From Chthoniobacterales bacterium (GTDB lineage: Bacteria; Verrucomicrobiota; Verrucomicrobiia; Chthoniobacterales; JAFAMB01), in the NCBI GenBank assembly GCA_035710445.1, contig DASTDH010000409.1, forward strand, positions 1 to 45,022: 45,022 nt of DNA, read 5' to 3'. Within the stretch, counting starts at the first letter, position 1. Every line of letters starts with the position of its first letter. Made by a program: the position numbers and the translations under genes. Shown piece after piece: positions 7,473-44,750 of the stretch. Below the pieces are notes generated by a model. The model did no database searches. It was not told the origin of the DNA and worked only from the letters and a program-made list of their open reading frames with translations.

Positions 7473-8495
7473 ATGGATTATCGTAAGCTAGGACGCAGTG
7501 GCCTCAAGGTGTCGCCGCTTTGTTTGGGCACAATGATGTTCGGAGGTCAGACCGATGAGACGACTTCTACACGAATCGTCGCCCGCGCCCGCGCCGCTGG
7601 AATCAACTTTATCGATACGGCTGATGCCTACAACAACGGACGTTCCGAGGAAGTGGTGGGACGCGCCATCGCCCCGGAACGTTCCTGGTGGATTTTGGCA
7701 ACGAAGCTGGCGAACCCGACCGGTGATAGCCCCAATGATCGCGGTTTGTCTCGACGCCGGACTTTCAACGCGGTCGAGGCCAGTTTGCGTCGCCTTAGTA
7801 CCGACGTCATCGATATCCTTTATCTCCATAAAGAGGATCATTCGACCCCTCTCGACGAGACGGTAGGGGCGCTCGCCGACTTGCTCCGGCAGGGCAAGAT
7901 CCGCTATTTCGGAGTCTCAAACTTTCGAGGATGGCGTGTGGCCGACATCTGCCGACTGTGCGACTTGGCCGGAATCGATCGCCCGGTGGTGAGCCAACCA
8001 TACTACAATCTGCTGAACCGCATGCCCGAAGTCGAGCATTTGCCGGCGTGCGCTCATTACGGACTGGGCGTGGCGCCCTATAGCCCGCTTGCCCGCGGAG
8101 TTCTCACCGGCAAATATCCGCCGGACAGCACTCCCTCCGCAGATACCAGAGCTGGCCGCCAGGATAAACGGATCATGGAAACCGAATGGCGACGGGAAAG
8201 CCTGGAAATCGCCGGCCAATTGGCAAAACACGCGAGCTCACGTGGGATTACGCCGGGACAGTTTGCCTTTGCCTGGGTGCTTAACAACCGGATCGTTACC
8301 GCCCCGATTGCCGGCCCACGAACCGAACCGCAATGGGAGGATTATCTTGCCGCTCTCGATTATGATTTCACGCCCGAAGACGAAGCTCTAGTGGATCGGC
8401 TCGTAGTCCCCGGTCATGCCTCCACACCCAGCTACAATGATCCCATGTACCCGATCGAAGGACGCGTTGCGCTCAAAACTCAAAAGAACAATTGA
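7473..8495 (+). CDS. aldo/keto reductase (Tas/YajO/Kv-beta-like)
   Basis: The sequence reads MDYRKLGRSGLKVSPLCLGTMMFGG...INFIDTADAYNNGRSEE...LYLHKED...YFGVSNF. The gene starts 3 nt after the GH1 stop (TAA TAA ATG). Confidence 0.88.
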   Translation: MDYRKLGRSGLKVSPLCLGTMMFGGQTDETTSTRIVARARAAGINFIDTADAYNNGRSEEVVGRAIAPERSWWILATKLANPTGDSPNDRGLSRRRTFNAVEASLRRLSTDVIDILYLHKEDHSTPLDETVGALADLLRQGKIRYFGVSNFRGWRVADICRLCDLAGIDRPVVSQPYYNLLNRMPEVEHLPACAHYGLGVAPYSPLARGVLTGKYPPDSTPSADTRAGRQDKRIMETEWRRESLEIAGQLAKHASSRGITPGQFAFAWVLNNRIVTAPIAGPRTEPQWEDYLAALDYDFTPEDEALVDRLVVPGHASTPSYNDPMYPIEGRVALKTQKNN

Positions 8496-14170: not shown

Positions 14171-14321
14171 AGGCAGATAAGCACGTCCAACAGTCAAATC
14201 TTTTCAGAATTGCGGAAAGCGGATAGCGGAACGCGGTCGCGTTCGCTAAGCTTTCGGCGCATTCGACAGCTTTGCTCTGCTGTTGATCGTGTGCTTTGGG
14301 CGATGTGGGCGCCAATTCGAT

Positions 14322-22482: not shown

Positions 22483-22526
22483 AAACAATCATTTCTCAAG
22501 ATAGGCGAATCGCATCTATTCGGTTG

Positions 22527-23960
22527 ATGCTGAAACCGCTAACGATGCTAGGGCCGGATAACCCGAGGCGGACGACCGGCCAGCCGGCGCCGGACGCCCG
22601 GAGCCGCGCTCTTTTTGTTGTCTGTTTCGGGTTTTTCCTCGTGCTGCTCGATACTACTGCTCTGAACATCGCAACACCGGCACTCGGAAAAGAGTTCGGC
22701 AACGGGATCAGCGATCTTCAGTGGGTGATTAACAGTTACACGCTGGTATTCGCGAGTCTTTTGCTCACCGCCGGTGCAGTCGGCGACCGGACCGGCGTGA
22801 AACGATCTTATCAGATTGGTTTGGCCCTTTTCACCGTCACCTCCCTTTTCTCGGCGGTTGCCTCTTCCCTCTCTCTGCTGATTGCGGCTCGCGCGCTTCA
22901 GGGATTAGGCGCAGCTATCATGCTGCCGGCGTCCCTTGCCATCTTGTCTCATACTTTCCCGGATCCGGCGGAACGGAGCCAGGCGGTCACCACTTGGGCC
23001 AACACCGCTAGTCTTGGCTTTGCCGCCGGTCCCGTTCTCGGCGGCGTCCTCACAACTTATTTAGGCTGGCGCAGTATCTTTTGGTTAAACGTTCCAGTCG
23101 GTCTCATCGCGCTTTATCTGAATCATGTTTACATCCGCGAAACGAGGTTAAGCCGGCCGCGTCCGATCGATTGGAGCGGACAGTTATCGATCGGTCTTGC
23201 CCTCTTCGCGCTAACCTACGCTCTGATCGAAGTCGGTCGCCGGGCATGGGATAACCCTATCGTGCTCTGCGCACTTGGATGCGCGGTACTGTTGTTGTGT
23301 CTGTTTGTTGCTTTAGAGCGCCGAAGCAATCACCCAGTGCTCCCCGGTTTCCTCTTCGCACAACTGACCTTCTCCGCCTGTATCGTTGTCGGATTCGTCC
23401 TGAACTTCAGCATGTACGGCGTCCTGTTCATTGAATCTCTTTATCTGCAAAGCGCACGAGGAATGGACGCGTTCGCTACCGGGCTTACTATTACACCGTT
23501 TACACTCTTTCCCACTGTCGCCAGCCGCCTGCTTGGCCAACGGAATGGAATACCGTACTTACAGCCTCGCATTTCTCTCGGCTTGGCTCTGGCCGCAATC
23601 GGAACAGGCGTACTGGTGGTCTGTGCGTTGAGTACGGCCTTCTGGCCGATCCCCATTGGCCTTGGATTGATGGGGATCAGCATGGGGATAATCATGCCGG
23701 CCATGACAGCCGGCGTACTGATCTCGGCTGCGCCGGAACACTCTGGGCTCGCTTCAGGGCTACTTAATTCAATGCGTCAGGTCGGCGGTACTGTCGGTGT
23801 TGCGCTGCTGGGGACAACCATGCAGACGCTCGCTCCGGGCACCGGGCTAGCTTGCGCACTCGGATTCACCACCCTATTCCTTCTGGTTGCCGCCGGGCTG
23901 AGTCGCTGGGTATTTGCGGTAGGCCGAGATCCCAAACTTCTGCGGACAGGCCAAGCCTAA
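22527..23960 (+). CDS. MFS transporter, DHA2 (EmrB/QacA-like, 14-TMS) family
   Basis: The sequence LDTTALNIATPALGKEF...LQWVINSYTLVFASLLLTAGAVGDRTGVKR is the typical DHA2 motif region. Length is about 477 aa with many hydrophobic helices. The start could be 22524 (TTG), 22527 or 22545. Confidence 0.88.
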   Translation: MLKPLTMLGPDNPRRTTGQPAPDARSRALFVVCFGFFLVLLDTTALNIATPALGKEFGNGISDLQWVINSYTLVFASLLLTAGAVGDRTGVKRSYQIGLALFTVTSLFSAVASSLSLLIAARALQGLGAAIMLPASLAILSHTFPDPAERSQAVTTWANTASLGFAAGPVLGGVLTTYLGWRSIFWLNVPVGLIALYLNHVYIRETRLSRPRPIDWSGQLSIGLALFALTYALIEVGRRAWDNPIVLCALGCAVLLLCLFVALERRSNHPVLPGFLFAQLTFSACIVVGFVLNFSMYGVLFIESLYLQSARGMDAFATGLTITPFTLFPTVASRLLGQRNGIPYLQPRISLGLALAAIGTGVLVVCALSTAFWPIPIGLGLMGISMGIIMPAMTAGVLISAAPEHSGLASGLLNSMRQVGGTVGVALLGTTMQTLAPGTGLACALGFTTLFLLVAAGLSRWVFAVGRDPKLLRTGQA

Positions 23961-23974
23961 GTAATCGGTAATCG
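23958..23974 (+). repeat. heptad stop-triplet array H1: TAA GTAATCG GTAATCG
   Basis: It begins at the MFS stop codon. TAA occurs at 23958, 23962 and 23969, covering all three frames. Confidence 0.6.
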
Positions 23975-24039
23975 GCGGCGACTGTCCAACCGAAGGCCCT
24001 GACTTTGTTGAATTCAGAGATTCGAACCGAACCGACTCG

Positions 24040-29593: not shown

Positions 29594-30127
29594 ATGGTCT
29601 CCAACCTTCCTGATCAGTATTTTCGCCGTATCGAGTCCATTCATCAGGCGCTGCAGATTCCATCGAACTACGGCGCACTTCGAAACCTTACGCCATACCT
29701 GGAAGCATCCGATCTTGTTCCGGTCGAGGGATACGAACGGCAACATTATCTTGCCCCCTACGCTGCACGCCAATGGCACGCCATGAAGAGCGCTGCAGCT
29801 CAGGACGAGATTGAGCTCTGGGTCATCTCCGGCTTTCGCAGCGTCGATCGTCAAACCGAGATCATTGAAGGCAAGCTCACCCAGCGGATGGCCCTGCATG
29901 CCATTCTTGCGGTAATCGCTGCTCCTGGTTTCAGCCAGCATCACACCGGCCTGGCTATCGACATCGGAACACCAGACCATACGGCCTTGACTGAAGACTT
30001 CGAAAACTCCGCGGCATTCCGCTGGCTCACTTCCTATGCCGAAAAATTCGGGTTCGTGATGCCTTGTACCCGCGATAACCCGTACGGATTTATCTATGAA
30101 CCGTGGCATTGGGTACTCGCGAGATAG
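29594..30127 (+). CDS. M15-family zinc D-Ala-D-Ala carboxypeptidase-like peptidase (VanY/LdcB-type)
   Basis: The motifs SGFRSVDRQ, APGFSQHHTGLAIDI and YEPWHW match the H-x6-D ... H metal and active-site pattern of peptidase M15B. No signal peptide is evident. Confidence 0.8.
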   Translation: MVSNLPDQYFRRIESIHQALQIPSNYGALRNLTPYLEASDLVPVEGYERQHYLAPYAARQWHAMKSAAAQDEIELWVISGFRSVDRQTEIIEGKLTQRMALHAILAVIAAPGFSQHHTGLAIDIGTPDHTALTEDFENSAAFRWLTSYAEKFGFVMPCTRDNPYGFIYEPWHWVLAR

Positions 30128-30148
30128 CCGATAGCCGATAACCAATAG
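30125..30148 (+). repeat. heptad stop-triplet array H2: TAGCCGA TAGCCGA TAACCAA TAG
   Basis: It starts at the M15 peptidase stop codon. Stops occur at 30125, 30132, 30139 and 30146, with an exact 7-nt period. Confidence 0.65.
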
Positions 30149-30269
30149 GCGAACCGGACCACCCTCACTCTCCAGGAACGCGCACTTGAGATTGCCTACA
30201 GAGGCCCGGTCGCAATTTCTGGTAGCGGCGACTAGCCCGTCAGACATAGTCCGGTTTTCTCAGGTTGTC

Positions 30270-30500
30270 GGTTGTTTCGCCCGGACGACGTCGGATCCCG
30301 CGAAGCAGCCCGGTTTTGTTCAGTTGAAGGATCGAACGGAGCGACTGGTTCTGAGCGGCCGTCAAAACTCGTCGCCTTTATATCGCCGCGTTTAGGCGGT
30401 AAGCATGCCTCAATCAACCATGTATTGCTGGATTCGCGGACCGAGCGATGGCGACTGCGTTTTGAGGCGGCATGACGCGGGCAGCTCCGGACCGCATTTT
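30270..30500 (+). repeat. repeat family R2, copy in opposite orientation to 16150-16390
   Basis: ggacgacgtcggatcccgcgaagc (30283-30306) is the exact reverse complement of 16334-57. acggagcgactggttc, ggtaagc and gagcgatggcgactgcg (30443-59) are shared with the other copies. Confidence 0.7.
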
Positions 30501-30567
30501 TGGACTGCGCCAACGCCTGAGGTTGTGTGTTCCTGTCCCCTGCAACCAGCAACGCTGTTTAATTTGC

Positions 30568-30603
30568 TAATCACTAATCACCAATCACCGGGTCACCTCT
30601 CAC
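30568..30603 (-). repeat. heptad stop-triplet array H3 (minus strand: GGTGAGA GGTGACCC GGTGATT GGTGATT AGTGATT)
   Basis: On the plus strand, TCA occurs at 30600, 30593 (the genuine stop of the dehydrogenase gene), 30585, 30578 and 30571. Confidence 0.65.
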
Positions 30604-32026
30604 CCTCCCCCACATCATCCTTCGTAAAGCGTCCGTTGATCTGCCGCCAGATCCCCAGCTTATTCGCGTTGCGCAGTTCTACGGGCAACAAGTTCTCAGC
30701 AAAATTTTGGAAACATACCGGTCGCGTGAACCGGTGGATTGCTGCTGTCCCAACCGAAGTGAAACGAGAATCCGTTGTCGCCGGATAGGGTCCACCATGT
30801 TGCATCGACGGGCAGACCTCGACTCCCGTAGGGTAACCATTAAGAATTACGCGCCCTGCTCTCCCAGCAAACGCTTCCAGAAATGCTCTGCTTGATTCCT
30901 CTTCGTCCGGCGTGAGATGCACCGTTGCAGTCAGTTGTCCCGGCAAAGATTTGATCGTCTTTAACACTTCTTCTTCATCCGTGCATTCCACTAGCAATGT
31001 GGCCGGACCGAAAATCTCTTCCTGTAGCACTTGGTTCTCCCGAAATTCTTTGGCGGTTGCTCTCAATAGATGAGCGGCCCGGCTTACCCGCACATGGGAC
31101 TGCGTCTTTCGGAGTGAGTCGGCCAATCGTTCCTCGATGCCACGGTATAACATTGGCGCTGATTCTACTTTGGCGAGTGCATCCCCAAGTGCGCTGCTCA
31201 ACTCTTCAAAGTCCGCTCCGCGCAGACCTAGAATTAGCCCCGGTTTGGTGCAGAATTGACCAACACCGAGTGTCACTGAACCAGCCAAACCTTTTACGAT
31301 CTCTGCCCGGCGTTCTCGCAATGCTTCCGGCATAATCAACACAGGATTGAGAGAGCTCATTTCAGCAAAAACTGGAATCGGCTCCGGCCGACCGGCTGCG
31401 AGATCGAACAAGGAACGTCCAGCCTGAGTGGACCCTGTAAACCCGACGGCGCGAATCACCGGATGGGTCACCAACTGCTTGCCCGCCTCGATAGAGGTAT
31501 CGGTCACCAGATGAAACATGGCCTTGGGCATTCCAGTGTCTACTATTGCACGCACAATTGCGTCCCCGACCAAAACCGAGGTGCGTGGATGAGCCGGATG
31601 AGGTTTCACTGCGACCGCACAACCCGCGGCAAAAGCCGAAGCCGTATCGCCGCCTGCCACGGAGAAAGCCAACGGGAAATTGCTGGCGCTGAATACCGCA
31701 ACCGGTCCGAGCGGCCGGAGCACCCGCCGAATGTCTGGCTTAGGAATGGGCTTGCGCGCGGGCAGAGCGGTATCGATACGCGCGTCGACCCATGATCCTT
31801 CCTCGATCAAGCCGGCGAACATCGTAAGCTGATTGACCGTGCGCGTTCGCTCTCCCCGCAGGCGATCAACCCCGAGCTTAGATTCCTCATGGCAAACTTG
31901 AATCAATTCGTCGCCAAGCTTCTCGATGTGTTCTCCGACCCGACGAAGAAACGATGCGCGTTCTTTGGCGCCGGGGGCGCGAAAGCCGCCGAGACCATCC
32001 AGATGAGCAGATAAAGAATCACTCAT
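30593..32026 (-). CDS. alpha-ketoglutarate semialdehyde dehydrogenase (aldehyde dehydrogenase family; XylA/AraE-like)
   Basis: ATG at 32026. The motifs GPVAVFSASNFPLAFSVAGGDTASAFAAGCAVAVKPHPAHP, VGFTGS and EMSSLNPV...GQFCTKPG are typical of the KGSADH subgroup. It lies downstream of the pentonate dehydratase and FAH genes. Confidence 0.8.
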   Translation of the reverse strand: MSDSLSAHLDGLGGFRAPGAKERASFLRRVGEHIEKLGDELIQVCHEESKLGVDRLRGERTRTVNQLTMFAGLIEEGSWVDARIDTALPARKPIPKPDIRRVLRPLGPVAVFSASNFPLAFSVAGGDTASAFAAGCAVAVKPHPAHPRTSVLVGDAIVRAIVDTGMPKAMFHLVTDTSIEAGKQLVTHPVIRAVGFTGSTQAGRSLFDLAAGRPEPIPVFAEMSSLNPVLIMPEALRERRAEIVKGLAGSVTLGVGQFCTKPGLILGLRGADFEELSSALGDALAKVESAPMLYRGIEERLADSLRKTQSHVRVSRAAHLLRATAKEFRENQVLQEEIFGPATLLVECTDEEEVLKTIKSLPGQLTATVHLTPDEEESSRAFLEAFAGRAGRVILNGYPTGVEVCPSMQHGGPYPATTDSRFTSVGTAAIHRFTRPVCFQNFAENLLPVELRNANKLGIWRQINGRFTKDDVGEGER

Positions 32027-32081
32027 AGCCAATCCTTGCACAGAAGATCGCAGAGACCACAAAGAACCACTAATAGACACA

Positions 32082-32181
32082 CAGAAATTTAAACCGCGAA
32101 TGAACACTAATAGAAGAACCGGAGTTGAATGCGGTCCCTTTATTCGTGTCTATTCGCGCGCATTCGTGGTCTAAATTTCTG
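32082..32181. repeat. 21-bp inverted repeat (19/21) in the FAH-to-dehydrogenase spacer
   Basis: cagaaatttaaaccgcgaatg (32082-32102) pairs with cattcgtggtctaaatttctg (32161-32181). The 58-nt loop contains tandem 10-mers TATTCGTGTC and TATTCGCGCG (32141-32160), and a third unit, CATTCGTGGT (32161-32170), opens the right arm. Confidence 0.75.
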
Positions 32182-32198
32182 CCTCCGTTCGTGGTTGT

Positions 32199-33026
32199 TC
32201 AGGCGACTTCGTTTGTCAGTTCACCGATGGGTGCGGCCGCGATCCTGACCAAATCTCCCGATAACAATGTGAAGTCATTCGGTGGAACGATGCCAGTACC
32301 GGTAAATAGAAAAGCACCGACCGGAAAATCGAGTTCGCGAAACAAATATTCGACTAGTTCGCTGAACGGGCGGCGAATGCGCGACAGCGCTACACTGCCT
32401 TGGAAGAGGGGTTTGCCGGAGCGCTCGATTACCAACGTCATTTCAACGTTCAAATCAAGCGGTCGGTCGATTACCAGTATGGCGGGGCCCAGCGCGCAAC
32501 TGCCGTCGTACACTTTCGCTTGCGGCAGATACAACGGATTTTCGCCTTCGATATCGCGAGACGAAACATCGTTGCCCAAGGTGTATCCGATAATTTGACG
32601 ATCAGTATTGATCGCCAACACCAACTCCGGCTCAGGAACGCTCCAACGGGCATCTTTGCGAACACGAATCTTGGCATCAGGTCCAATTGCTCTCCATCCG
32701 GGCGATTTGAAGAAAAGTTCCGGGCGCTCAGCCTCATACACTTTGGAGTAAAATAACGCCGCTCCGCTTTCCTTAGATTCCTCCCGGCGCCCTTCCCGGC
32801 TTCTTTCGTAGGTCACACCGGCTGCCCAGATCTCCTGCGTACCAACTGGAGCCAGAATCTCCTCCGGAGCCGGGGGTTGCGCCGCCGCTCCTCGGCGTGA
32901 AACCTCAAGCAGATGGTCGTAAAGATTGGGCAGGTTTAAGAGCTCATCAAAATCGGTGCCGTGAACAGTGAAGAATTTGCCATCCGAGTTCAGCAGGAAA
33001 CTTTTGGTGGTGCGGTAGAGAAGCAT
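32199..33026 (-). CDS. fumarylacetoacetate-hydrolase-fold 2-keto-3-deoxy-pentonate dehydratase-like protein (XylX/KdaD-like)
   Basis: ATG at 33026, 275 aa. The FAH-family C-terminal domain pattern is present: IWAAGVTYE...YTLGNDVS.RD.EGENPLYLPQAK...G. The operon context places it between an IlvD/Edd dehydratase and KGSADH. Confidence 0.7.
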   Translation of the reverse strand: MLLYRTTKSFLLNSDGKFFTVHGTDFDELLNLPNLYDHLLEVSRRGAAAQPPAPEEILAPVGTQEIWAAGVTYERSREGRREESKESGAALFYSKVYEAERPELFFKSPGWRAIGPDAKIRVRKDARWSVPEPELVLAINTDRQIIGYTLGNDVSSRDIEGENPLYLPQAKVYDGSCALGPAILVIDRPLDLNVEMTLVIERSGKPLFQGSVALSRIRRPFSELVEYLFRELDFPVGAFLFTGTGIVPPNDFTLLSGDLVRIAAAPIGELTNEVA

Positions 33027-33027
33027 A

Positions 33028-33056
33028 GTAAGGCAGTAATCGGTAATCAGTAATGG
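33028..33056 (+). repeat. heptad array H4 (plus-strand GTAA units: GTAAGGCA GTAATCG GTAATCA GTAATGG)
   Basis: GTAA occurs at 33028, 33036, 33043 and 33050. The array ends 2 nt from the FAH start codon and is inverted relative to H5. There is a 13-bp perfect complement, 33034-46 with 33185-97. Confidence 0.65.
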
Positions 33057-33168
33057 CTCAATAATCGATGGTATTCGGCGAGCATTTTCGTACCGATGAG
33101 AACTCTGGGATCGACTGAGACACCCGGTCAAACAATTAGAAGCAGCTTCCTCGAGCTGCGGCACCATT

Positions 33169-33215
33169 CTCTACCGATTACCGTTTACCGATTACTGATT
33201 ACTGATTAGTGGCTA
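33169..33215 (-). repeat. heptad stop-triplet array H5 (minus strand: TAG CCA CTAATCA GTAATCA GTAATCG GTAAACG GTAATCG GTAGAG)
   Basis: On the plus strand, CTA/TTA units start at 33171, 33178, 33185, 33192, 33199, 33206 and 33213. This is a strict 7-nt period, and the last unit is the genuine stop of the dehydratase gene. Confidence 0.75.
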
Positions 33216-34943
33216 GTGCGACGGCCTCGGCACCGCATGGCCACGCGAGCCAATCAGAAAATCAAAATCGGCACCGAGATTAGCTTGCATCACGCGTTCG
33301 CAGTACAAGCGCTGATAGCCGCCCGAAGGCAGCTCCGGTGGAACCCATGCGCTTCGTCGCCGTTGCAATTCGGCCTCGTCTACCTGCAAATGAAGAATCC
33401 GTTTCTCAACGTCCACCTCGATGATATCGCCATCCTGCACGAAAGCGAGCGATCCTCCTACTGCCGCTTCCGGTGCGCAATGCAAGATTACGGTGCCATA
33501 AGCGGTCCCGCTCATGCGCGCATCGGATATTCGGATCATGTCAGTGATTCCGCGTTTGAGTAGCGCCGGTGGAAGTCCCATGTTGCCGACCTCGGCCATC
33601 CCGGGATAACCGCGCGGCCCGCAATTCTTCAAAACCAGAATCGAATTTTCGTCGGCCTCCAAATCAGGATCATTGATCCGCTCATGGTAATGTTCAATGT
33701 TTTCGAAGACGATTGCTCTGCCGGTATGCTTCAGCAGATGCGGGCTGGCGGCTGACGGTTTAACCACTGCCCCGTCCGGAGCCAGATTCCCTCGTAGTAC
33801 CGCAACGCCACCGGAACGAACCAGCGGCTTGGATAACGGCCGAATCACTTCCGAATCGTAACATTCCGCATTCCGAATATTCTCCCAAACGGTATTGCCG
33901 CTTACGGTCTTAATCGAAGTGTGCAAAAGCCCAGCCTCCGCCAGTCTGCGCATCACCACGGGAAGACCTCCCGCGTAATAAAAATCCTCCATCAGAAAAC
34001 GTCCGGAAGGCATCAAATCCACAATGGTCGGAACCTCACGGCCAAGTTTGTCCCAGTCATCCAGAGTTACTTTAACCCCAAGTCTGCCGGCAATCGCAAG
34101 GAGATGAATGACGCCGTTAGTCGATCCTCCCACTGCGCCATTGACCCGAATCGCGTTTTCGAATGCCTCACGGATGAGAACCTTAGAGAGTCGCTGATCT
34201 TCCTGCACCATCTCGACGATGCGGCGGCCCGCCATCTGTGCCAGGACACCCCGCCTGGAATCAACCGCAGGAATCGCTGCATTGTGAGGCAGCGCCACTC
34301 CGAGCGCCTCGACCATAGACGCCATGGTGGATGCCGTCCCCATAGTCATACAATGACCCGCACTCCGGGACATGCAGGCTTCCGCCTCCGAAAATTCGCA
34401 CATCGTCATCTGGCCGGCACGAACCGCCTCGGAGAACTGCCAAACGCTGGTTCCGGACCCGATCGTTTGCCCCTTGAATCGACCGTTTAGCATCGGTCCG
34501 CCCGACACCACGATGCTCGGCAGATCGCAGCTGGCCGCTCCCATCAGCAATGCGGGCGTGGTCTTGTCGCAGCCGGTAAGTAGAACCACCCCATCGATCG
34601 GATTCCCGCGAATCGACTCCTCTACGTCCATGCTCACCAAGTTCCGAAACAGCATCGCCGTAGGTCGCAGGTTCGATTCACCCAGCGACATCACCGGAAA
34701 TTCAAACGCCACGCCGCCCGCTTGCAGGACCCCTTGCTTCACCTTGTCGGCCAGCCCGCGAAAATGTGCATTGCAGGGCGTAAGCTCCGAATAGGTATTA
34801 CAAATGCCGATAACCGGTCGCCCGTCGAAAACATCGTCCGGCAATCCCTGGTTCCGCATCCAGCTCCGATGAATGAAAACATCGCGACTGGTCCCTCCGA
34901 ACCAAGCCTGGGACCGAAGCGATCCGTTTGATTGCTCTATCAT
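33213..34943 (-). CDS. IlvD/Edd-family sugar-acid dehydratase (pentonate dehydratase, XylD / L-arabonate dehydratase-like)
   Basis: About 576 aa. The sequence reads LRSQAWFGG...NQGLP...GRPVIGICNT.SELTPCN.H...CDKTTPALLMGA...CMTMGTASTM. The track ORF starts at GTG 34952; ATG 34943 is the likelier start. Confidence 0.88.
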   Translation of the reverse strand: MIEQSNGSLRSQAWFGGTSRDVFIHRSWMRNQGLPDDVFDGRPVIGICNTYSELTPCNAHFRGLADKVKQGVLQAGGVAFEFPVMSLGESNLRPTAMLFRNLVSMDVEESIRGNPIDGVVLLTGCDKTTPALLMGAASCDLPSIVVSGGPMLNGRFKGQTIGSGTSVWQFSEAVRAGQMTMCEFSEAEACMSRSAGHCMTMGTASTMASMVEALGVALPHNAAIPAVDSRRGVLAQMAGRRIVEMVQEDQRLSKVLIREAFENAIRVNGAVGGSTNGVIHLLAIAGRLGVKVTLDDWDKLGREVPTIVDLMPSGRFLMEDFYYAGGLPVVMRRLAEAGLLHTSIKTVSGNTVWENIRNAECYDSEVIRPLSKPLVRSGGVAVLRGNLAPDGAVVKPSAASPHLLKHTGRAIVFENIEHYHERINDPDLEADENSILVLKNCGPRGYPGMAEVGNMGLPPALLKRGITDMIRISDARMSGTAYGTVILHCAPEAAVGGSLAFVQDGDIIEVDVEKRILHLQVDEAELQRRRSAWVPPELPSGGYQRLYCERVMQANLGADFDFLIGSRGHAVPRPSH

Positions 34944-35024
34944 CGAAGGCACCTCTCAAAACTTAATTTAGATTCGTCCATAATAATCACCTCAACTCGC
35001 TGACTCATAGCTACTTATAACCAG

Positions 35025-35084
35025 TCACTCATCAAGAAGCACCAATCACCAGTCACCGTTTACTGCTTACCTCTCACCGCTCAC
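35025..35084 (-). repeat. heptad stop-triplet array H6 (minus strand: TGA GCGGTGAGA GGTAAGC AGTAAAC GGTGACT GGTGATT GGTGCTT CTTGATG AGTGACT)
   Basis: On the plus strand, TCAC/TTAC occurs at 35046, 35053, 35060, 35067, 35074 and 35081, an exact 7-nt period. Position 35081 is the genuine permease stop. Degenerate units continue in register to 35025. Confidence 0.75.
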
Positions 35085-36034
35085 TGTTCCGCACGCTCCC
35101 GTCCGTAAGCCAACAGCATAGCGATGATCACAACGCCGTAAATGATTTGCCGACCAGCCTCCGGCATCTGCACCACCGATAATATCGATTGTAGAAGGGT
35201 AATCAAAATTACGCCGGCGACCGTACCGAGAAACGTGCCGCGCCCACCAAGAATCCTGGTCCCGCCCAAGACAACAGCCGCAATCGCTGGAAGAAGATAA
35301 GGATCTCCCATCGCCTGGTAAGCATGAGTAGAGTAGCCGGCCAGGAGGACGCCGGAAAGCGCGGAGCAGGATCCGGATATGGCAAAGCAAACTAGAACTA
35401 TGCGGCGCGTGTCGACCCCGGACAGATAAACTGCCGATTCACGGTTACCGATCGCATAAACTCGCCGACCAAAGACGGTTCGGGTCAACAATATAATAAC
35501 GATGAGGGCGACCGTCCCCCACACCCAAAGCGCATTGGGAACCCCGAAGAAAGATCGCCCAACGGCGATCATATGCATGGTCGCGGTAGCGCGATCTTGC
35601 GGAGCGTAACCACTTGTATGAACGATCATCAATCCCTGGGCCAAGACGTTGGTACCAAGCGTGAAGATCATCGACGGCACACGGAGATACGCAACCCCTA
35701 CGCCGTTTACCAGACCGACGCAGAGACCGCACGCGATGCCGATTGGGATGGCCAGTGTCGTTCCTATTTGGCCCCAACCGCCTGCGGTGGTTGACATCAT
35801 GCCACCGATCGTCACAACCCATGGGATCGAGAGATCAATTTGGCCAAGTAAAATGATCAGCATAAGGCCGGAGGCGATGATACCGAGAAACGAAGCCACC
35901 TGCAGTTGCTGCAAGAGATACTCTGGGGAAAGAAAATTGGACGAATAGAATGAACCCACCACCAGTAGAGCAATAATACAGCCGAAGACGGCCAGCACGA
36001 TTGGATCAATACGTTTCAATATCCGGGCCTGCAT
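35081..36034 (-). CDS. sugar ABC transporter permease (RbsC/XylH-type, CUT2)
   Basis: 317 aa and polytopic. It carries the family pattern LLGQIDLSI.WV......VGLVNG..VAYLRVPS.I.TLGT. The gene starts 6 nt after the preceding gene's stop. Confidence 0.85.
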   Translation of the reverse strand: MQARILKRIDPIVLAVFGCIIALLVVGSFYSSNFLSPEYLLQQLQVASFLGIIASGLMLIILLGQIDLSIPWVVTIGGMMSTTAGGWGQIGTTLAIPIGIACGLCVGLVNGVGVAYLRVPSMIFTLGTNVLAQGLMIVHTSGYAPQDRATATMHMIAVGRSFFGVPNALWVWGTVALIVIILLTRTVFGRRVYAIGNRESAVYLSGVDTRRIVLVCFAISGSCSALSGVLLAGYSTHAYQAMGDPYLLPAIAAVVLGGTRILGGRGTFLGTVAGVILITLLQSILSVVQMPEAGRQIIYGVVIIAMLLAYGRERAEQ

Positions 36035-36040
36035 TGCCTG

Positions 36041-38815
36041 TTAGCCTCCGAGGTAAATATCAAGCCTATTCTTGACCCGAAGCAGTCGGAAGGAACTGAG
36101 ACTAACTGCCGCCAGCAGAACGACACCGAGGTACAGCGGTTGCCAAAGGGGATCGAGGTCGAAGGTGATGAGCAGATCGCCGATGGTTCTTAGTACGAAA
36201 GCGCCAAAGATCGAGCCGATGGCTCCGCCTGAGCCGCCGAAAAGAGACGTTCCCCCGAGCACGACCGCAGCGATCGAATTCAGAGTATAGGTGCTGCCAA
36301 GAACGGTGTTCGCTTCGCCGGAATAGGTAATGCAGGTCAAAAGTAGCCCGGCCATCGAGGCCAGGACACCCGCCATGAGATAAGCGAAAAACTTCGCTCG
36401 TCCAATTGGAATACCCGACATAAAGGCGGCCTGTTCCGAAGAACCTACGGCGTACGCTGCACGACCCAGGACGGAATGCTTGTAAGGGAGCCAAAAGAGG
36501 AAGACCACACCCAGCAGGAGAAGCAGAGTTACCGGAATGCCACCGGGCAATGATCCAACTACGGCGTCAGCAAAATCGGTGTTGATCGTGCCGCCCGGAG
36601 CAGGCCTCAACCAAAGGGCAAAACCAAAATAGATCGCTCCGGTAGCAATCGTCGCGATGATTGGCTGCAACCGGCCAAACACGACGATTGCGCCATTGAT
36701 CGCGCCACAGACGGTTCCAACCAGAAGGACCCCGAACACTCCAAACGCCGTTTCGAGGGGTGAGCCGGCTACGAGGGTTGAGGCGAGGCAGTTTGCCAGT
36801 ACAAACACCATACCAACGGAAAGGTCGAGGCCTGCGGTAAGGATCGGGATAGTTTGCGCCATCGCTACGAGAGCGAGGAGCACTCCTTTGTTGGCTGCCG
36901 TATTGAGAATTCTCGCGCTAAAACCGCCCGGATGTTTGGCTACGTATAGTGTGAACATCACGAGGAAGAGCGCTACCGCGAAAAGAATTCGGCGTTGAGC
37001 CGCAACCTGAAAACGCCAGTCGGGTTTACGTTTCCCTGGCTTGGAAGGGATCGCAGCCTGCTCGATATAGCCGGACTGAAGACTTGTGGGCTGTCCTCCT
37101 GCACTCGGCTGCGTCAGATCCCCGCGATCCGCCGTACCCGCAATCCGTGGCTGACGAGGATCCGGCGCCGCTGATGGGATGGACTCCAAGGTTGGTGAAT
37201 CGACAGATATGTCGGACGGGCGCGGTCGTTCCCTAGGTTCTACCGACCGCATCTCGATTAACGCCGTCGATGTTTTGCTCTGCGCCTCCGTCACCGGCAG
37301 ATTGAGAGCACTTGCGACCAGATTGCGTTCGGTGATCGCCTCCCCTTCGAGAGTTCGCACTAAACCGCCTCCATAAAGAACCAGGACCCGGTCACAACAG
37401 CCGATCAGCTCGTCATAGTCGGTGGAATAAAATAAGATGGCGGCTCCTTCGTCTGCCAGCCGCCGAAGGCTCTGATAGAGCTCCTGCTTGGTACCGACAT
37501 CGACACCGCGGGTGGGATCATTTAAGAGGATGATTCGCGGCTCGGTCATCAGCCATTTGCCAATGACTACCTTCTGTTGATTGCCGCCGGACAGAGCACC
37601 GACCGGACCTTCAATACCGTCACAGCGAATATTCAGGCGCAGGATGATCTCGTTGATTGCTTTCTCTTCGGTACCGCGCTGGATCAGTCCGAAACGACAA
37701 AATCGTTCGATTGCAGCAAAAGAAAGGTTATCACGAACCGACATCGGTAGCATCAATCCCTCCGTCTTCCTGTCCTCTGGGATGAGCGCCATGCCGACTT
37801 CCTTTCTCTTGGCCACGGCGGGACTTCTTAACGTAACCGCTCTGCCGCCAACTTCGACCGTACCAGAAACACCATTTAAAACGCCGAATAAAGCCAGCAG
37901 CAATTCGTGTTGGCCCTGTCCGTCGAGTCCTCCCAGCCCGATCACTTCGCCTCGCTTGATCGACACATCGATCCCTCGCAGGCGCCCCGCCCAAGAGAGA
38001 TTCTTAACGTTGAGCATCGTCGCGCTGTCTGTCGCTCGCGCGGGTTTGGGCGGAAAAACGCTCTTGTACTCGCGTCCGATCATCATTTCCACGATCGCAT
38101 CATCGCTTTTGGTCCCAGCCCCAAACGTCGCGACATAGCTGCCGTTGCGATAAACTGTGCAGTCGTCGGCGAGCTCCGCTATCTCATGCATGCGATGCGA
38201 GATATAGACGATAGCGAGGCCTTCTGACCGAAGTTGTTTCAAGACGCGGAAAACCCTAGCCACATCGGCGGCGGTCAATGCTGATGTAGCCTCGTCCAGA
38301 ATCAGAATCTTCGGCTTGCGAGCGAGCGCTTTCGCGATCTCGACCATCTGCCGGCGCGAAAGCGGAAGATCTTTGACCAACGAAAGCGGATGAATATCCT
38401 GCGCCCCAGCTCGGGCCAGTGCTTCCTCCGCCAAGCGACGCTGAGACCGGCGATCGATTAGTCCGAGACGGACGGGCGGGCTGGTGATCGCGATATTGTC
38501 GGCCACGGATAAATCGGCGATCAGCGACAGCTCTTGGAAGATACAGGCAATGCCTGCTGCCGTCGCGGCGGCCGGTTTGTGGAAGGTGACCGGCTGGCTT
38601 TCCAGTTTCATGACACCGGAATCGGGTTGGACAACGCCAGCCATCACCTTGATTAAAGTTGATTTTCCCGCGCCGTTCTCGCCGAGAACCGCGTGAATGC
38701 GACCACGGAAACAGTCGAGGCGTGCGTCCTGGAGCGCACGGACGCCACCGTAACGCTTCGAAATCCCATCCATGCTGAAGAGTGCAGTTGCACTCGTATT
38801 TGAAACAAGTTCCAC
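36041..38815 (-). CDS. sugar ABC transporter, fused tandem-NBD ATPase + permease (RbsA/XylG-like fused to RbsC/XylH-like)
   Basis: A single 924-aa ORF. The N-terminal half has two Walker A / signature / Walker B sets (GENGAGKST...LSRRQ...ILILDEATSAL, then ...LSGGNQQKV...IILLNDPTRGVD). A P/S/R-rich linker of about 90 aa follows, then a permease domain of about 325 aa (ILTAGLDLSVG...). The start is GTG 38815, with an alternative ATG at 38773. Confidence 0.85.
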   Translation of the reverse strand: MELVSNTSATALFSMDGISKRYGGVRALQDARLDCFRGRIHAVLGENGAGKSTLIKVMAGVVQPDSGVMKLESQPVTFHKPAAATAAGIACIFQELSLIADLSVADNIAITSPPVRLGLIDRRSQRRLAEEALARAGAQDIHPLSLVKDLPLSRRQMVEIAKALARKPKILILDEATSALTAADVARVFRVLKQLRSEGLAIVYISHRMHEIAELADDCTVYRNGSYVATFGAGTKSDDAIVEMMIGREYKSVFPPKPARATDSATMLNVKNLSWAGRLRGIDVSIKRGEVIGLGGLDGQGQHELLLALFGVLNGVSGTVEVGGRAVTLRSPAVAKRKEVGMALIPEDRKTEGLMLPMSVRDNLSFAAIERFCRFGLIQRGTEEKAINEIILRLNIRCDGIEGPVGALSGGNQQKVVIGKWLMTEPRIILLNDPTRGVDVGTKQELYQSLRRLADEGAAILFYSTDYDELIGCCDRVLVLYGGGLVRTLEGEAITERNLVASALNLPVTEAQSKTSTALIEMRSVEPRERPRPSDISVDSPTLESIPSAAPDPRQPRIAGTADRGDLTQPSAGGQPTSLQSGYIEQAAIPSKPGKRKPDWRFQVAAQRRILFAVALFLVMFTLYVAKHPGGFSARILNTAANKGVLLALVAMAQTIPILTAGLDLSVGMVFVLANCLASTLVAGSPLETAFGVFGVLLVGTVCGAINGAIVVFGRLQPIIATIATGAIYFGFALWLRPAPGGTINTDFADAVVGSLPGGIPVTLLLLLGVVFLFWLPYKHSVLGRAAYAVGSSEQAAFMSGIPIGRAKFFAYLMAGVLASMAGLLLTCITYSGEANTVLGSTYTLNSIAAVVLGGTSLFGGSGGAIGSIFGAFVLRTIGDLLITFDLDPLWQPLYLGVVLLAAVSLSSFRLLRVKNRLDIYLGG

Positions 38816-39001
38816 AAAAGGTCGCGAAGGCAGATTTTTGGACAGGTGCGCACCGAGGTCCCAAAGAACGTGCTACTGACCCAGAATAGGATCAAATGGC
38901 CGTATCTTTTGAACAATGCAAGGTCCTGCTAAAAACGGAATCCCTCTTTGAGATCTTTGCGATCTCTTTGTTTAAAATCTTTCTTTCGCGGGCACCTGTT
39001 A

Positions 39002-39031
39002 GGTGCCGCCGGAGTCTCGCCCCGCGGCACC
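39002..39031 (-). terminator. 8-bp GC hairpin just downstream of the SBP gene (possible intra-operon attenuator or mRNA stabiliser)
   Basis: GGTGCCGC (39002-09) pairs with GCGGCACC (39024-31) across a 14-nt loop. It lies 18 nt after the SBP stop on the minus strand. There is no clear U-tract. Confidence 0.35.
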
Positions 39032-39048
39032 GATACCACCACGACAAC

Positions 39049-40209
39049 TCACTGATTGGCCTCAGTCTTGCCCATTATCTCCTCCGCGGTGAAGCCGATG
39101 TTGCAGGCCGGAAAGGAGTTTCCGACGAAGAAGTTGTCTTGGAGGTTGGGATAATAGTCTTGACCTTCTTTCATGTTTGGCCATTCGACATACGAAACCG
39201 GCAAACTGATCGATTGCGGAACTGAGTTGCCTTGAAGTGCTGAGATGGCTGCCTTAAGGGTTACCGCAACCTGAGCCGGGCCGGTACCGCTCGAAGAGCC
39301 ATGCAAACCTTGGTCAGCGTACTTCGCGCACAACTTGCGATACCCGTTTTCCGTTTCGCCGGATACCGGAATCATTGGATGATGCGCATCAATCAGTGCT
39401 TGAACCGTGCCGGTGGAGCCGCCCTGGGTGTATACGCCCGCGAACTGCTTATGCACCGCAATCGCATCGGCGGTGACCTTCTGAGCCGTCCCATCATCCC
39501 ATTTGCCGACCACCTCGATCACTTCGAATTTTTTGCCCGACTTATCAAGCACCTCATGGAAACCGTTATGCCGGTCACGGTCGACCGAATTGCCCGATGG
39601 TCCACGTACCTCAAGAATCTTGCCACTGTCCGCCTTGATTTCCTTCAAGAGCCAACGAGCAGCTAAACGACCGAGTTCGGTTTGGTCAACATTGACGGTA
39701 ATTGCATCTGGTGACTCGATGACGTTATCAAACGACAGAAGCACGACGCCTGCCGCATTGGCTCTTTTAACCACAGGCGCGAAAGCAGCAGGATTGAGCG
39801 CGTTGACAATCACTGCATCGTAGCCGGAGTCGATGAAGTTATTGGCTGCGGCAATCTGGGCAGCAAGATCTTCACCGGTCGAGACTACCTTGAATTCCTT
39901 TAGTTGGCTCTTTACGTCTGCCTTTTCGGCGTAGGCCTTGGCCGTTTTGATCATCTGGATACGCCAGGTATTTCCGATGAAGCCGTTGACTAACGCGATC
40001 CGGTAGGGTCCATCCTTTTTCGGCCATTTGAAATACTTTGTGTCCGAACTCCATGGTTTCATGCAGTCGGCATCGGCACCAGGTCCGGAGACGGTTTGCG
40101 GGCCCGCCGCAATTGCCGTCCCGGAGACGCCGTACAACAGCGACAGACCACCAATCAGGATCAGTATCCGGCCGCTGAGAAACGTATTTTTCGTCAGATT
40201 TTTTTTCAC
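39049..40209 (-). CDS. sugar ABC transporter periplasmic substrate-binding protein (Peripla_BP_4, ribose/xylose/arabinose type)
   Basis: The N-terminus is signal-like (MKKNLTKNTFLSGRILILIGGLSLLYGVSGTAIAAG). The sequence then reads YRIALVNGFIGNTWR...GYDAVIVNALNP...VVLLSFDN. It has a GTG start and is the first gene of the minus-strand operon. Confidence 0.85.
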   Translation of the reverse strand: MKKNLTKNTFLSGRILILIGGLSLLYGVSGTAIAAGPQTVSGPGADADCMKPWSSDTKYFKWPKKDGPYRIALVNGFIGNTWRIQMIKTAKAYAEKADVKSQLKEFKVVSTGEDLAAQIAAANNFIDSGYDAVIVNALNPAAFAPVVKRANAAGVVLLSFDNVIESPDAITVNVDQTELGRLAARWLLKEIKADSGKILEVRGPSGNSVDRDRHNGFHEVLDKSGKKFEVIEVVGKWDDGTAQKVTADAIAVHKQFAGVYTQGGSTGTVQALIDAHHPMIPVSGETENGYRKLCAKYADQGLHGSSSGTGPAQVAVTLKAAISALQGNSVPQSISLPVSYVEWPNMKEGQDYYPNLQDNFFVGNSFPACNIGFTAEEIMGKTEANQ

Positions 40210-43869: not shown

Positions 43870-44535
43870 CTATTGGCGGCCGAGCCATCCGTCCTTGAGC
43901 CGAATGATCCTTTGGTCGTAACCGGCGTTCGTTTCCGAATGTGTCACCTGGACGATAGTGGTGCCGAGCGCATTGAGCTTACAAAACAATTCCATGATTT
44001 CTTTCGCCTGATCGGAATGCAGATTGCCGGTCGGCTCGTCCGCCAAAAAGAGTTCAGGTTTCGCTACCGTCGCTCGCACCACGGCGACAAGTTGCTGTTG
44101 GCCACCGGAGAGTTGAGCAGGAAAGAGATCGCGTTTTCCGACGATGTTGAATCTATCTAACGCATCACAGACAATTGCTTCTCGTTCCTTTTTCGGAACG
44201 TCAGGATAGGCCAGGGGCAGCTCGATGTCTTCATACACCGTGAGATCGTCGAGCAGATGATAGGACTGAAACACAAATCCAGTATGTTTCTTCTGCAATG
44301 CCAGACGTTCTTTGGGCCGTAACTTATGTACCGCATGACCCAGCAAATGATATTCCCCTTCCCAATTTGCATCATGTAATCCGAGAATATGCAAGAGAGT
44401 CGATTTACCGGCTCCGGAGGGACCCATGATCGAAACGAATTCGCCCTCCGCTATCGTAAAGGTGATCTGCTGGAGGACGTAGTAAAGACCGCCTTTCAGT
44501 TTGTAACACTTTTCAATGTTTTTGAGTGTGATCAT
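43870..44535 (-). CDS. ABC transporter ATP-binding protein (LolD/MacB-NBD/FtsE-like)
   Basis: It has Walker [11 protein letters not shown]-loop, signature LSGGQQQ, Walker [12 protein letters not shown] and H-loop VTH. Length is 221 aa. No cognate FtsX-type permease is present in the window. Confidence 0.88.
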
Positions 44536-44568: not shown

Positions 44569-44750
44569 GCTTGCGAGTTTGATAGCTCACCGTTTTCGTC
44601 GTCGTCCTCGTACTCGTTGTCGTCCTCGTGCTCGACCTTAGATGTTGTCAGTTGCGGGTTGCACGTTCCTCTTTCTCGCACTTCCGGGCCGCGTCCTCAC
44701 ATTCCCAGACTACCGCGGACAAGCTGTCGGTGTTTTCGCACTCGGTACGC

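Follow-up and report, generated by a model that had tools for sequence, protein, structure and literature searches.

A heptanucleotide array anchored on a permease stop codon in a Chthoniobacterales genome, probably a decayed member of a lineage-wide class of intergenic repeats

Why should the stop codon of a bacterial gene be followed by further stop triplets at a strict spacing of seven nucleotides? The question is raised by a locus in a 45,022-nt stretch of DNA, hereafter the window (contig DASTDH010000409.1 of assembly GCA_035710445.1, positions 1 to 45,022 of the forward strand), from a Chthoniobacterales bacterium of the phylum Verrucomicrobiota. On its minus strand, the TGA of a permease gene opens a series of degenerate heptads, here called site A. 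With some reserve, we favor the view that site A, old and decayed and with the unit RGTRANN on the mRNA strand, belongs to a set of intergenic heptanucleotide simple-sequence repeats found throughout the lineage, in which slippage changes the number of units and stop codons become captured.

Site A occupies positions 35009 to 35085 of the minus strand, as delimited by lag-7 autocorrelation and by parsing of its units. Read on that strand from 35085, its 77 nt fall into 11 heptads with the consensus RGTRANN, namely AGTGAGC GGTGAGA GGTAAGC AGTAAAC GGTGACT GGTGATT GGTGCTT CTTGATG AGTGACT GGTTATA AGTAGCT. Nine of the 11 in-phase triplets are stops (TGA, TAA or TAG), and the first of them, in unit 0, is the real TGA (35083-35081) of the gene for a BPD_transp_2 permease (35081-36034). 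It is followed by TGA at 35076, TAA at 35069 and 35062, TGA at 35055, 35048, 35034 and 35027, and TAG at 35013, while the two broken units carry TGC at 35041 and TTA at 35020. A first description made from the letters of the DNA, the sequence-only reading, had given plus-strand coordinates for the triplets that the minus-strand parse reproduces exactly. It had also followed degenerate units in register to about 35025; the register does continue, but the tail reaches about 35009. Self-similarity at site A amounts to 0.59 at lag 7, as against at most 0.36 at the remaining lags between 3 and 12. Because 7 is not a multiple of 3, an array of this type closes every frame within three units, and at site A all three reading frames are indeed closed, each at least two times, between 35083 and 35046 (the first six units), as had been claimed. 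The sense strand contains 36% G and 10% C. The start codon of the next gene, which encodes a dehydratase, lies 65 nt past the last unit of site A and 137 nt past the permease stop, and has its own GAGAGGTG ribosome-binding site.

A chance origin of such arrays was ruled out by period scans, Markov simulations and shuffles. The window holds two period-7 runs of at least five stop triplets, as against 0.005 expected from 200 first-order Markov simulations, which makes them approximately 400 times commoner than predicted; for runs of at least four, the same simulations predict 0.12 and three are found. No run of at least five stop triplets occurs in the window at any period from 4 to 12 other than 7. 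Similarly, the motif GTRA-N3-GTRA-N3-GTRA, with at most one mismatch allowed, has 14 matches in the window and 0.76 in shuffles, and in a period scan of the window, strong tandem similarity was confined to three places with period 7 and one with period 6. Tandem Repeats Finder (TRF) detects the window arrays other than site A, which it misses because this array is degenerate. The sequence of site A is identical in four independent assemblies (ENA and JGI), which rules out an assembly artefact.

Several conventional identities for site A were considered and rejected. A hairpin or other structured RNA was ruled out, as an inverted-repeat search of positions 34880-35130 found no inverted partner array and the predicted RNA fold of the site is no better than that of shuffles (z = +0.81); such structure holds only for paired arrays, such as site B described below. 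The same fold score, a terminator scan and the Rfam search likewise eliminate a palindrome of the repetitive extragenic palindrome (REP) or bacterial interspersed mosaic element (BIME) type and an intrinsic terminator. The Rfam search returned no match in the window, site A included, and hence no known RNA family. Consensus scans for terminator-like or promoter sites found none in the spacer that contains site A and no enrichment overall, which rules out a terminator or a promoter as the identity of the site.

Four further arrays, sites B to E, exist at the gene ends of the window at which they had been reported, and at all five sites the stop triplets are on the coding strand of the gene upstream. 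Site B has two arms. Arm 1 (33171..33215, minus strand) is composed of (G/C)TAATC(A/G) heptads with seven in-phase stop triplets, the first of which is the real TAG of the dehydratase gene (IlvD/EDD family, 33213-34943). Arm 2 (33034..33054, plus strand), an inverted copy of arm 1 that reads CAGTAAT CGGTAAT CAGTAAT on the plus strand, sits 8 nt upstream of the true start of the next gene, which encodes an FAA hydrolase. The longest open reading frame (ORF) of that gene, from 33167, has the wrong start, as it reads through the inverted array and adds 47 false residues; orthologues and the gene calls of a sister contig place the start at an ATG at about 33025 (MLLYRTT..., 275 aa). The true dehydratase-to-hydrolase spacer is therefore approximately 190 nt long, with a sense array at the stop and its inverted copy before the start. 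The arms are 90% complementary over 20 nt, the region has a predicted fold of -61.9 kcal/mol that is better than those of shuffles (z = -2.78), and according to this model the arms can form a long hairpin that brackets the spacer.

Site C (30567..30604, minus strand; GGTGAGA GGTGACC c GGTGATT GGTGATT AGTGATT) overlaps the end of the aldehyde dehydrogenase gene, whose real TGA (30595-30593) is the second unit and is followed by an 8-nt step. At site D (30123..30152, plus strand), 4.3 copies of GATAGCC begin with a unit that holds the true TAG of the gene for a VanY carboxypeptidase (plus strand, 29594-30127); the minus-strand ORF that competes with VanY there lacks both a Pfam match and a gene call in the sister contig, and arrays orthologous to site D are present in two of the related loci, which are referred to here by L-numbers (L002 and L086). 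Site E (23958..23975, plus strand) consists of two GTAATCG units directly 3' of the TAA of an MFS transporter gene (22524-23960), 4 nt out of phase with it. The proposal that the real stop is the first unit in four of the five arrays holds strictly for sites A, B and D and in part for site C, and fails for site E. Several arrays begin with GAGAGGTGAT, which resembles the local ribosome-binding site; a role as ribosome-binding site for the downstream gene was rejected, as none of the cases checked (two loci in L165, and site C) has a start codon at a workable distance after an array of this type.

Between the convergent aldehyde dehydrogenase and VanY genes, 465 nt (30128-30592) hold no called gene and are flanked by a heptamer array at the stop of each gene, on the coding strand of that gene. 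A 106-aa ORF at 30232-30552 has neither a Pfam match nor, on the sister contig, a gene call. The equivalent stretch in L002 has AATAGCC arrays on both flanks, in inverted orientation.

Close relatives reveal how the arrays change. An identical permease is encoded in three other assemblies, and one of these contigs matches the window at 99.2-99.3% identity along 9-10 kb (loci L161 and L164; for L164, 99.2% over 9.7 kb). Relative to the window, L164 has two more units and one extra base in arm 1 of site B (33213), and the real dehydratase stop is out of phase there because the first step is 8 nt long. One GATTACC unit is missing from arm 2 (33048) and one TATCGGC unit from the VanY array (site D, 30140), and at site C the two strains are set apart by a pair of 1-nt indels along with several substitutions. 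On the evidence of these alignments, arrays are shown to change by replication slippage in whole 7-nt units.

Over longer distances the arrays turn over altogether. Orthologous spacers in relatives whose protein is 93-95% identical contain different arrays or none. The permease stop is at the same position in L002, L003 and L086 with no array after it, and a conserved operon element was ruled out on account of these array-less permease-to-dehydratase spacers. After the dehydratase stop, the units, periods and offsets differ in every relative (heptamers, 9-mers or 10-mers). At the end of the aldehyde dehydrogenase gene, the GGTGATT units of the window are replaced by AATAGCC units in L002 (3.7 copies), L085 (6.7) and L086 (2.3). 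The comparison of orthologous gene ends that the sequence-only reading had proposed uncovers variation in unit number, both here and at sites B and D in L164. At the junction between the AP_endonuc_2 and GFO_IDH genes, six genomes have spacers of 15, 56, 118, 133 and 166 nt. The shortest reads TGA-TCGG-TAA-TAG-TGA-AA, that of 56 nt contains a GC hairpin and no array, those of 118 and 133 nt contain RGTRANN arrays of approximately 3-6 units and that of 166 nt one of approximately 16 units. To judge from their sequences, these spacers form a growth series of the array.

The abundance, position and strand of the arrays have been surveyed in a clade sample of about 186 kb, which is not a whole genome, and in a sample of about 1.8 Mb from other phyla (Acidobacteriota, Proteobacteria and further ones) fetched with the same query. 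The closest relatives of the dehydratase are encoded by metagenome-assembled genomes of Verrucomicrobiota/Chthoniobacterales (84-95% identity) and by soil metagenome contigs (79-96%). Period-7 arrays, as detected by TRF, number 22 per 100 kb in the clade and 2.8 in the other phyla, an enrichment of approximately 8-fold, and clade arrays of periods 8-10 number 5-10 per 100 kb. More than half of the clade period-7 arrays (22 of 41) lie within 25 nt of a gene 3' end, and 20 of these 22 have stop triplets on the sense strand.

These arrays tend to be in phase with the stop codon of the gene. In the clade, a stop triplet is found at +7 after the real stop at 13% of 147 gene ends, versus 0-7% at other offsets up to +19. 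At least three in-phase period-7 stops follow the real stop at seven of the 147 gene ends, versus zero for any other period and none of 1358 gene ends in other lineages. Among 20 sense-strand period-7 stop runs near clade 3' ends, 12 are in phase with the real stop, where one in seven is expected; the five antisense-type runs comprise four on arrays that also bear sense stops and one assignment error. An independent second sample, drawn from 13 loci that surround a UPF0261 gene (about 150 kb), was much sparser, with six period-7 arrays of the same unit types (GGTGATT, AGTAAGC/AGTAAAC, ATAGCCG); all four of those at 3' ends have sense-only stops, and two of the four are in phase. Both samples together yield 24 sense-strand period-7 runs or arrays near 3' ends, of which 14 share the phase of the real stop. 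The suggestion that stop-anchored arrays are a general feature is thereby supported for the lineage.

It is shown that arrays persist in non-coding sequence alone and abut an ORF boundary with the 5' end of their GT-rich strand. As a result, arrays that follow a gene are on its coding strand, and the partner array before the next gene is often inverted. The order stop, array, spacer, inverted array, start is also found in L002, L081, L087 and L124, and between convergent genes, where each gene faces the stop-bearing strand. The Acidobacteriota locus L011 has this order as well, with an inverted array pair that brackets a spacer. Of 28 heptamer arrays in the other phyla, 12 are no more than 25 nt away from a 3' end; their sense strand has more G than C in ten of the 12, and six of the 12 have no stop triplet on either strand. 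One example is a (GGGGCTT)6 array 3 nt past the dehydratase stop in a Vicinamibacterales genome. Since such stop-less arrays obey the rule of position and strand, the rule is independent of stop triplets. Avoidance of Rho by a G-rich, C-poor sense strand was considered as the cause of the strand bias; it fits the RGTRANN arrays and those of the other phyla and fails for RATAGCC, and is kept only as a partial idea because C is at least as common as G in RATAGCC arrays.

The habit of placing heptamer arrays after stop codons reaches well beyond Verrucomicrobia. In Acidobacteriota and Vicinamibacterales, arrays that follow the dehydratase stop are mostly G-rich on the coding strand. Arrays from the other phyla are located at 7707-7752 and 2627-2721 in L024, 5835-5924 and 7704-7735 in L080, 7745-7775 in L062 and 8530-8621 in L011, and one array in L080 shifts gradually from AGAATTC through AGGAGTC to AGCCCAA.

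How could an array become locked onto a real stop? In the reading that we favor, arrays would nucleate from a heptamer that contains a stop codon, and the TGA-TCGG-TAA-TAG-TGA of the 15-nt spacer looks like such a seed. With a three-frame-closing array just downstream, loss or shift of the original stop would be harmless, a process termed here 'stop capture', and genes would consequently come to terminate inside the array. Phase-locking would then reflect nucleation on a stop-containing heptamer combined with neutral loss or fusion of the original stop.

Two natural cases bear on this scheme. The aldehyde dehydrogenase gene ends with ...GGT GAG AGG TGA in the window, and in L164 an inserted G yields ...GGG TGA, such that the stop of the previous heptad is used. 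An ORF of L124 stops at a TAG that precedes an array by 23 nt; the homologous codon in L087 is CAG, and there the ORF (647-1078) runs 12 codons past the position of the TAG and ends at the TAA of the array. Genes do, on this comparison, come to end inside arrays, which do serve as backstops. Three-frame closure is hence a real consequence of the arrays, probably a by-product rather than the reason for their existence. In this slippage scheme, site A is not required to have a conserved function. Of the explanations put forward in the sequence-only reading, a slippage-generated microsatellite with a preferred site is the best supported, in view of the whole-unit indels at 99.2% identity, the turnover of spacers and the approximately 8-fold enrichment.

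A number of observations weigh against slippage as a complete account. First, decay within site A is uneven. Mismatches to the consensus at heptad positions 1 to 7 number 5, 1, 0, 4, 2, 7 and 6 (permutation p = 0.008), so that the G-T-(R)-A core is kept and positions 6-7 are randomised. In a core-versus-tail contrast that was picked post hoc, the core has three mismatches in 33 cells and the two tail positions 13 in 22. The 16-unit mosaic array of L176 shows a pattern of core and tail decay like that of site A. Second, the arrays show a strong strand bias: in the TRF arrays located no further from a 3' end than 25 nt (first set) or 40 nt (second set), stops are sense-only in 15 and antisense-only in two, one of which is an assignment error. 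This bias is relative to transcription and not to the chromosome. Third, the units RGTRANN, RATAGCC and GTTTTAR recur at unlinked gene ends in different genomes, and the 5' terminal units GTGAGAG-GTGATTG are common to site C and two L165 loci, with a variant at site A. Recurring units at unlinked loci would not be predicted by independent seeding from local stop contexts. Some caveats apply as well. Unit number at site A does not vary among the four assemblies, which fits a degenerate array that no longer slips and would also fit constraint. In addition, the statistics rest on greedy longest-ORF gene maps, and some of the loci are orthologous, which makes the counts not fully independent. Plain neutral slippage leaves the uneven decay, the recurrent units and the strand bias unexplained. 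Owing to the conserved GT-A core, the units shared by unlinked loci and the strand bias, a function at the RNA level has to be kept in view, and the same three features may also keep alive a sequence-specific mechanism of array generation.

The window arrays are a variant, in a new phylum, of a class of repeats that has already been described, and it is the stop-bearing, stop-anchored unit that sets them apart. Heptamers of the short tandemly repeated repetitive (STRR) type were reportedly described in cyanobacteria by Mazel and colleagues in 1990. In most prokaryotic genomes, heptanucleotide units have been found to exceed all other long simple repeats in abundance, and slippage tied to the footprint of the polymerase was proposed as the mechanism (Mrazek et al., 2007, as summarised in PMC4679880). 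These long simple sequence repeats (LSSRs) are described in two later papers as intergenic, lineage-specific in abundance and polymorphic in copy number (PMC4679880; PMC4692102), and three heptanucleotides of Calothrix PCC 7601 are mentioned in one of them (PMC4692102). Site A resembles this class in that it consists of 11 head-to-tail 7-nt units beyond chance expectation, and period 7 is over-represented in the clade sample. As to copy-number polymorphism, sites B and D show whole-unit indels and site C small ones, while site A is identical in the four assemblies, as would be expected of a degenerate array. Unlike the window arrays, the LSSR and STRR repeats, as these surveys are summarised there, are reported with no phase-locking to stops or coding-strand bias, and no Verrucomicrobiota are highlighted.

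The closest counterparts are the GGGAATC repeats of Xanthomonas and the GGGGA(C/T)T repeats of Nostoc PCC 7120, tandem 7-nt units in 2-26 copies (Rehm et al., 2015; PMC4692102). Approximately 90% of them are intergenic, and the flanking ORFs mostly have the same orientation. Those at gene ends are on the coding strand, overlapping the stop codon or up to 50 bp from it, and those immediately before starts are on the non-coding strand; each genome has 70-75 convergent inverted pairs. They have a conserved core and variable positions, (GGGANTN)n, and vary in length and sequence from one related species to another, as between Xcc and Xac; no function was found for them (PMC4692102). The belief that no element of this architecture had been described thus proved mistaken, given these repeats at stops with inverted partners upstream of the next ORF. 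The window units are one base apart from them (GGTAATC/GGGAATC and GGTGAYT/GGGGAYT), and site A likewise starts at the stop codon itself, on the coding strand. Unlike these repeats, site A has no convergent inverted partner, which site B and the arrays of L002, L087, L124 and L081 do have. Also unlike them, no unit of site A has GGG, and without a G-tract in the window units a G-quadruplex is not possible; with T-R in the third and fourth positions, each unit instead carries TGA or TAA on the coding strand. Further differences are that the window arrays are often in phase with the real stop, that the host belongs to Verrucomicrobiota (Chthoniobacterales), in which literature searches found no report of heptamer repeats, and that additional unit families (RATAGCC, GTTTTAR) occur alongside.

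A second counterpart is provided by the TAACTGA direct repeats of marine Beggiatoaceae and of some Cyanobacteria and Bacteroidetes, which are intergenic, orientation-biased and present in 2-6 copies (MacGregor, 2015; PMC4679880). Forward arrays of this unit stop all frames and therefore overlap a coding end by at most 18 nt (PMC4679880), which means that three-frame closure by a heptamer unit, which had been taken as undescribed, had already been stated. TAACTGA arrays are located a few nucleotides upstream of start codons that lack a Shine-Dalgarno sequence; in Beggiatoaceae, 147 of 170 sets are immediately upstream of start codons, inverted pairs are rare and there is a single unit sequence (PMC4679880). 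Arm 2 of site B, TTACTGA-type and thus one base apart, fits this placement, 8 nt before the FAA-hydrolase start. Unlike TAACTGA arrays, site A abuts a stop codon and not a start, about half of the arrays here are at 3' ends, and there are several unit families, whose nearest members (TTACTGA/GTAATCA at site B, GGTGATT at site A) are each at least one mismatch away.

Among the rival explanations, the one that survives best, though we regard it as unlikely, holds that the arrays are orientation-specific RNA elements, whose periodic core (GGURA, or AUAGCC) would be read after the stop by an oligomeric RNA-binding protein or by the 3' end of 16S rRNA. Paired arrays would serve as the two sides of a long hairpin by which mRNA stability or termination is controlled, and the stop triplets would be part of the motif and not its purpose. 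GGUGAU is complementary to AUCACC, near the 3' end of bacterial 16S rRNA, which counts in its favor. So does the match of UAG-N4 repeats, as in AAUAGCC arrays, to the site pattern of HutP, a protein of Bacillus that binds UAG-N4-UAG-N4-UAG, with a 7-nt period. Sites for HutP and TRAP are located in 5' leaders, control a terminator and are conserved and single-copy, with the gene for the cognate protein nearby. The likeness to HutP sites is thus a formal one of period. Unlike HutP and TRAP sites, site A has UGA/UAA, follows a stop codon, is not conserved in orthologous spacers and has neither a terminator-like site nor structure.

The RNA-element explanation further accords with the strand bias, which follows transcription and not the chromosome, with the occurrence of identical units at unlinked loci and in different genomes, and with the inverted array pairs that bracket whole spacers in the window (z = -2.78), L002, L087, L124, L081 and L011. 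Degenerate arrays keep the core while the tail varies, as is also seen in the published GGGANTN repeats (PMC4692102). Against it, site A has no partner and no structure, and arrays are gained, lost and resized among close relatives and are missing from orthologous spacers. Several unrelated unit families are found at the same position, so that no single motif covers them all. Moreover, no candidate binding protein has emerged, HutP and TRAP domains being absent among the 35 window proteins scanned against Pfam. A more inclusive version appears somewhat less probable still. It would make of the arrays a selected class of strand-specific RNA elements, with a periodic core that doubles as a three-frame stop and is read after termination by the 16S rRNA 3' end or an oligomeric RNA-binding protein; they would release or hold ribosomes and insulate cistrons, and GGGAATC, GGGGAYT and TAACTGA would be variants of the same system.

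That the arrays were selected as three-frame translational stops, or 'insulators', which would release readthrough, frameshifted or stop-loss ribosomes before the next cistron, is in our view improbable. The phase counts speak for it (14 of 24 versus one in seven), as do the sense-strand stops in 20 of the 22 clade arrays near 3' ends, compared with approximately 45% expected from base composition by our own calculation. In-phase triplets within arrays interchange among TAA, TAG and TGA, with 103 of 113 being stops and only one TGG, and in the two natural cases above an array supplies the stop after a frameshift or a stop loss. Nevertheless, such a function would work just as well out of phase with the real stop, and at 33213 the sister strain has lost that phase. 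Orthologous gene ends do not keep their arrays; most clade genes have none, a phased run being found at approximately 5% of gene ends. In other phyla, arrays without stops follow the same rule of position and orientation (see also PMC4692102), and the conserved core includes a G that is outside the stop triplet. Counts of stop-preserving versus stop-breaking variants were considered as a sign of selection on stop identity and were suggestive, but they were judged unreliable, as the stop-preserving count is inflated by the choice of the strand and phase that maximise stops and by the duplication of variant units. Thus, the insulating effect proposed in the sequence-only reading is borne out by the two natural cases, but a selected function is not, with arrays that are not conserved, phase that is lost at 33213 and stop-less arrays elsewhere. 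Selection for stops is deemed less likely than a function at the RNA level because neither phase nor presence is conserved, most genes are array-less and stop-less arrays obey the rule elsewhere.

A sequence-specific DNA process, by which an element with 7-bp target duplications would insert and excise repeatedly or pre-formed arrays with a defined 5' end would be inserted, agrees with the strict period of 7, the recurrent units with their common 5' terminal GTGAGAG-GTGATTG at unlinked loci and the inverted pairs that bracket spacers like terminal inverted repeats, and has been raised for TAACTGA repeats by MacGregor (PMC4679880), but it is very improbable, as paired arrays enclose different, unrelated sequences at different loci, the Pfam scan of 35 window proteins revealed no transposase or integrase domain, strain differences consist of whole units inside arrays as slippage predicts, and the Xanthomonas repeats are not associated with mobile elements (PMC4692102).

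Sites A to C belong to a minus-strand operon (30593-40209) that encodes a periplasmic binding protein, an ABC ATPase-permease fusion (36041-38815), the second permease (35081-36034), the dehydratase, the FAA hydrolase and the aldehyde dehydrogenase, the latter called at 475 aa as opposed to 504 aa for the longest ORF. A GntR/FCD regulator is encoded divergently upstream. The gene content of the operon resembles that of an oxidative (Weimberg-type) pathway for pentoses or sugar acids. Horizontal spread is suggested for the dehydratase, which shares 70-75% identity with proteins of Acidobacteriota and Alphaproteobacteria.

The dehydratase gene is preceded by a short upstream ORF (34940-34990, minus strand), (G/A)TG ATT ATT ... 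TTT GAG AGG TGY ... TGA, which holds the GAGAGGTG ribosome-binding site and whose stop and the dehydratase start share the overlap ATGA. The ORF is conserved in L001, L002, L081-L083 and L086, and the homologous peptide of L003 (MNITEKDKLK...) seems to form an in-frame fusion with the dehydratase. The upstream ORF may encode a leader peptide for translational coupling, or be what remains of an older N-terminus.

Other repeats are also present. GCGGAAA, a repeat free of stop triplets, occurs 3.6 times at 14212-14236 (plus strand), 46 nt upstream of a response-regulator gene. A TCGTCC or 18-nt repeat (7 or 2.2 copies, respectively) is located at 44596-44638 (plus strand), in the region upstream of an ABC ATPase gene whose end is at 44535. 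Repeats of a second family, which have a period of 10 nt and share the core (R)CRCGAAT, are found in the window at 32140-32200 (minus strand) and downstream of the dehydratase gene in L087, L089 and L124; the example in the spacer between the FAA-hydrolase and aldehyde dehydrogenase genes reads GACCACGAAT GCGCGCGAAT AGACACGAAT. Distant relatives have similar 10-mers after the dehydratase stop, as well as 8-nt TCGCCNNT arrays upstream of the dehydratase gene.

Heptamers are the commonest long simple repeats in many bacteria, according to the literature summarised in PMC4679880, and why the unit is 7 nt long and what these repeats do is a standing question. The lineage adds a variant in which each unit contains a stop codon and arrays are locked onto real stops, and it thereby offers two handles on this question: the identity of the stops can be tested for selection (TAA, TAG and TGA kept, TGG avoided), and the strand rule can be compared between phyla with stop-bearing and stop-less units. 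The arrays cause annotation errors, such as the 47 false N-terminal residues of the FAA hydrolase, and create differences in C-terminal length between strains. They are also ready variable-number markers for the typing of strains of the abundant, mostly uncultured Verrucomicrobia of soil.

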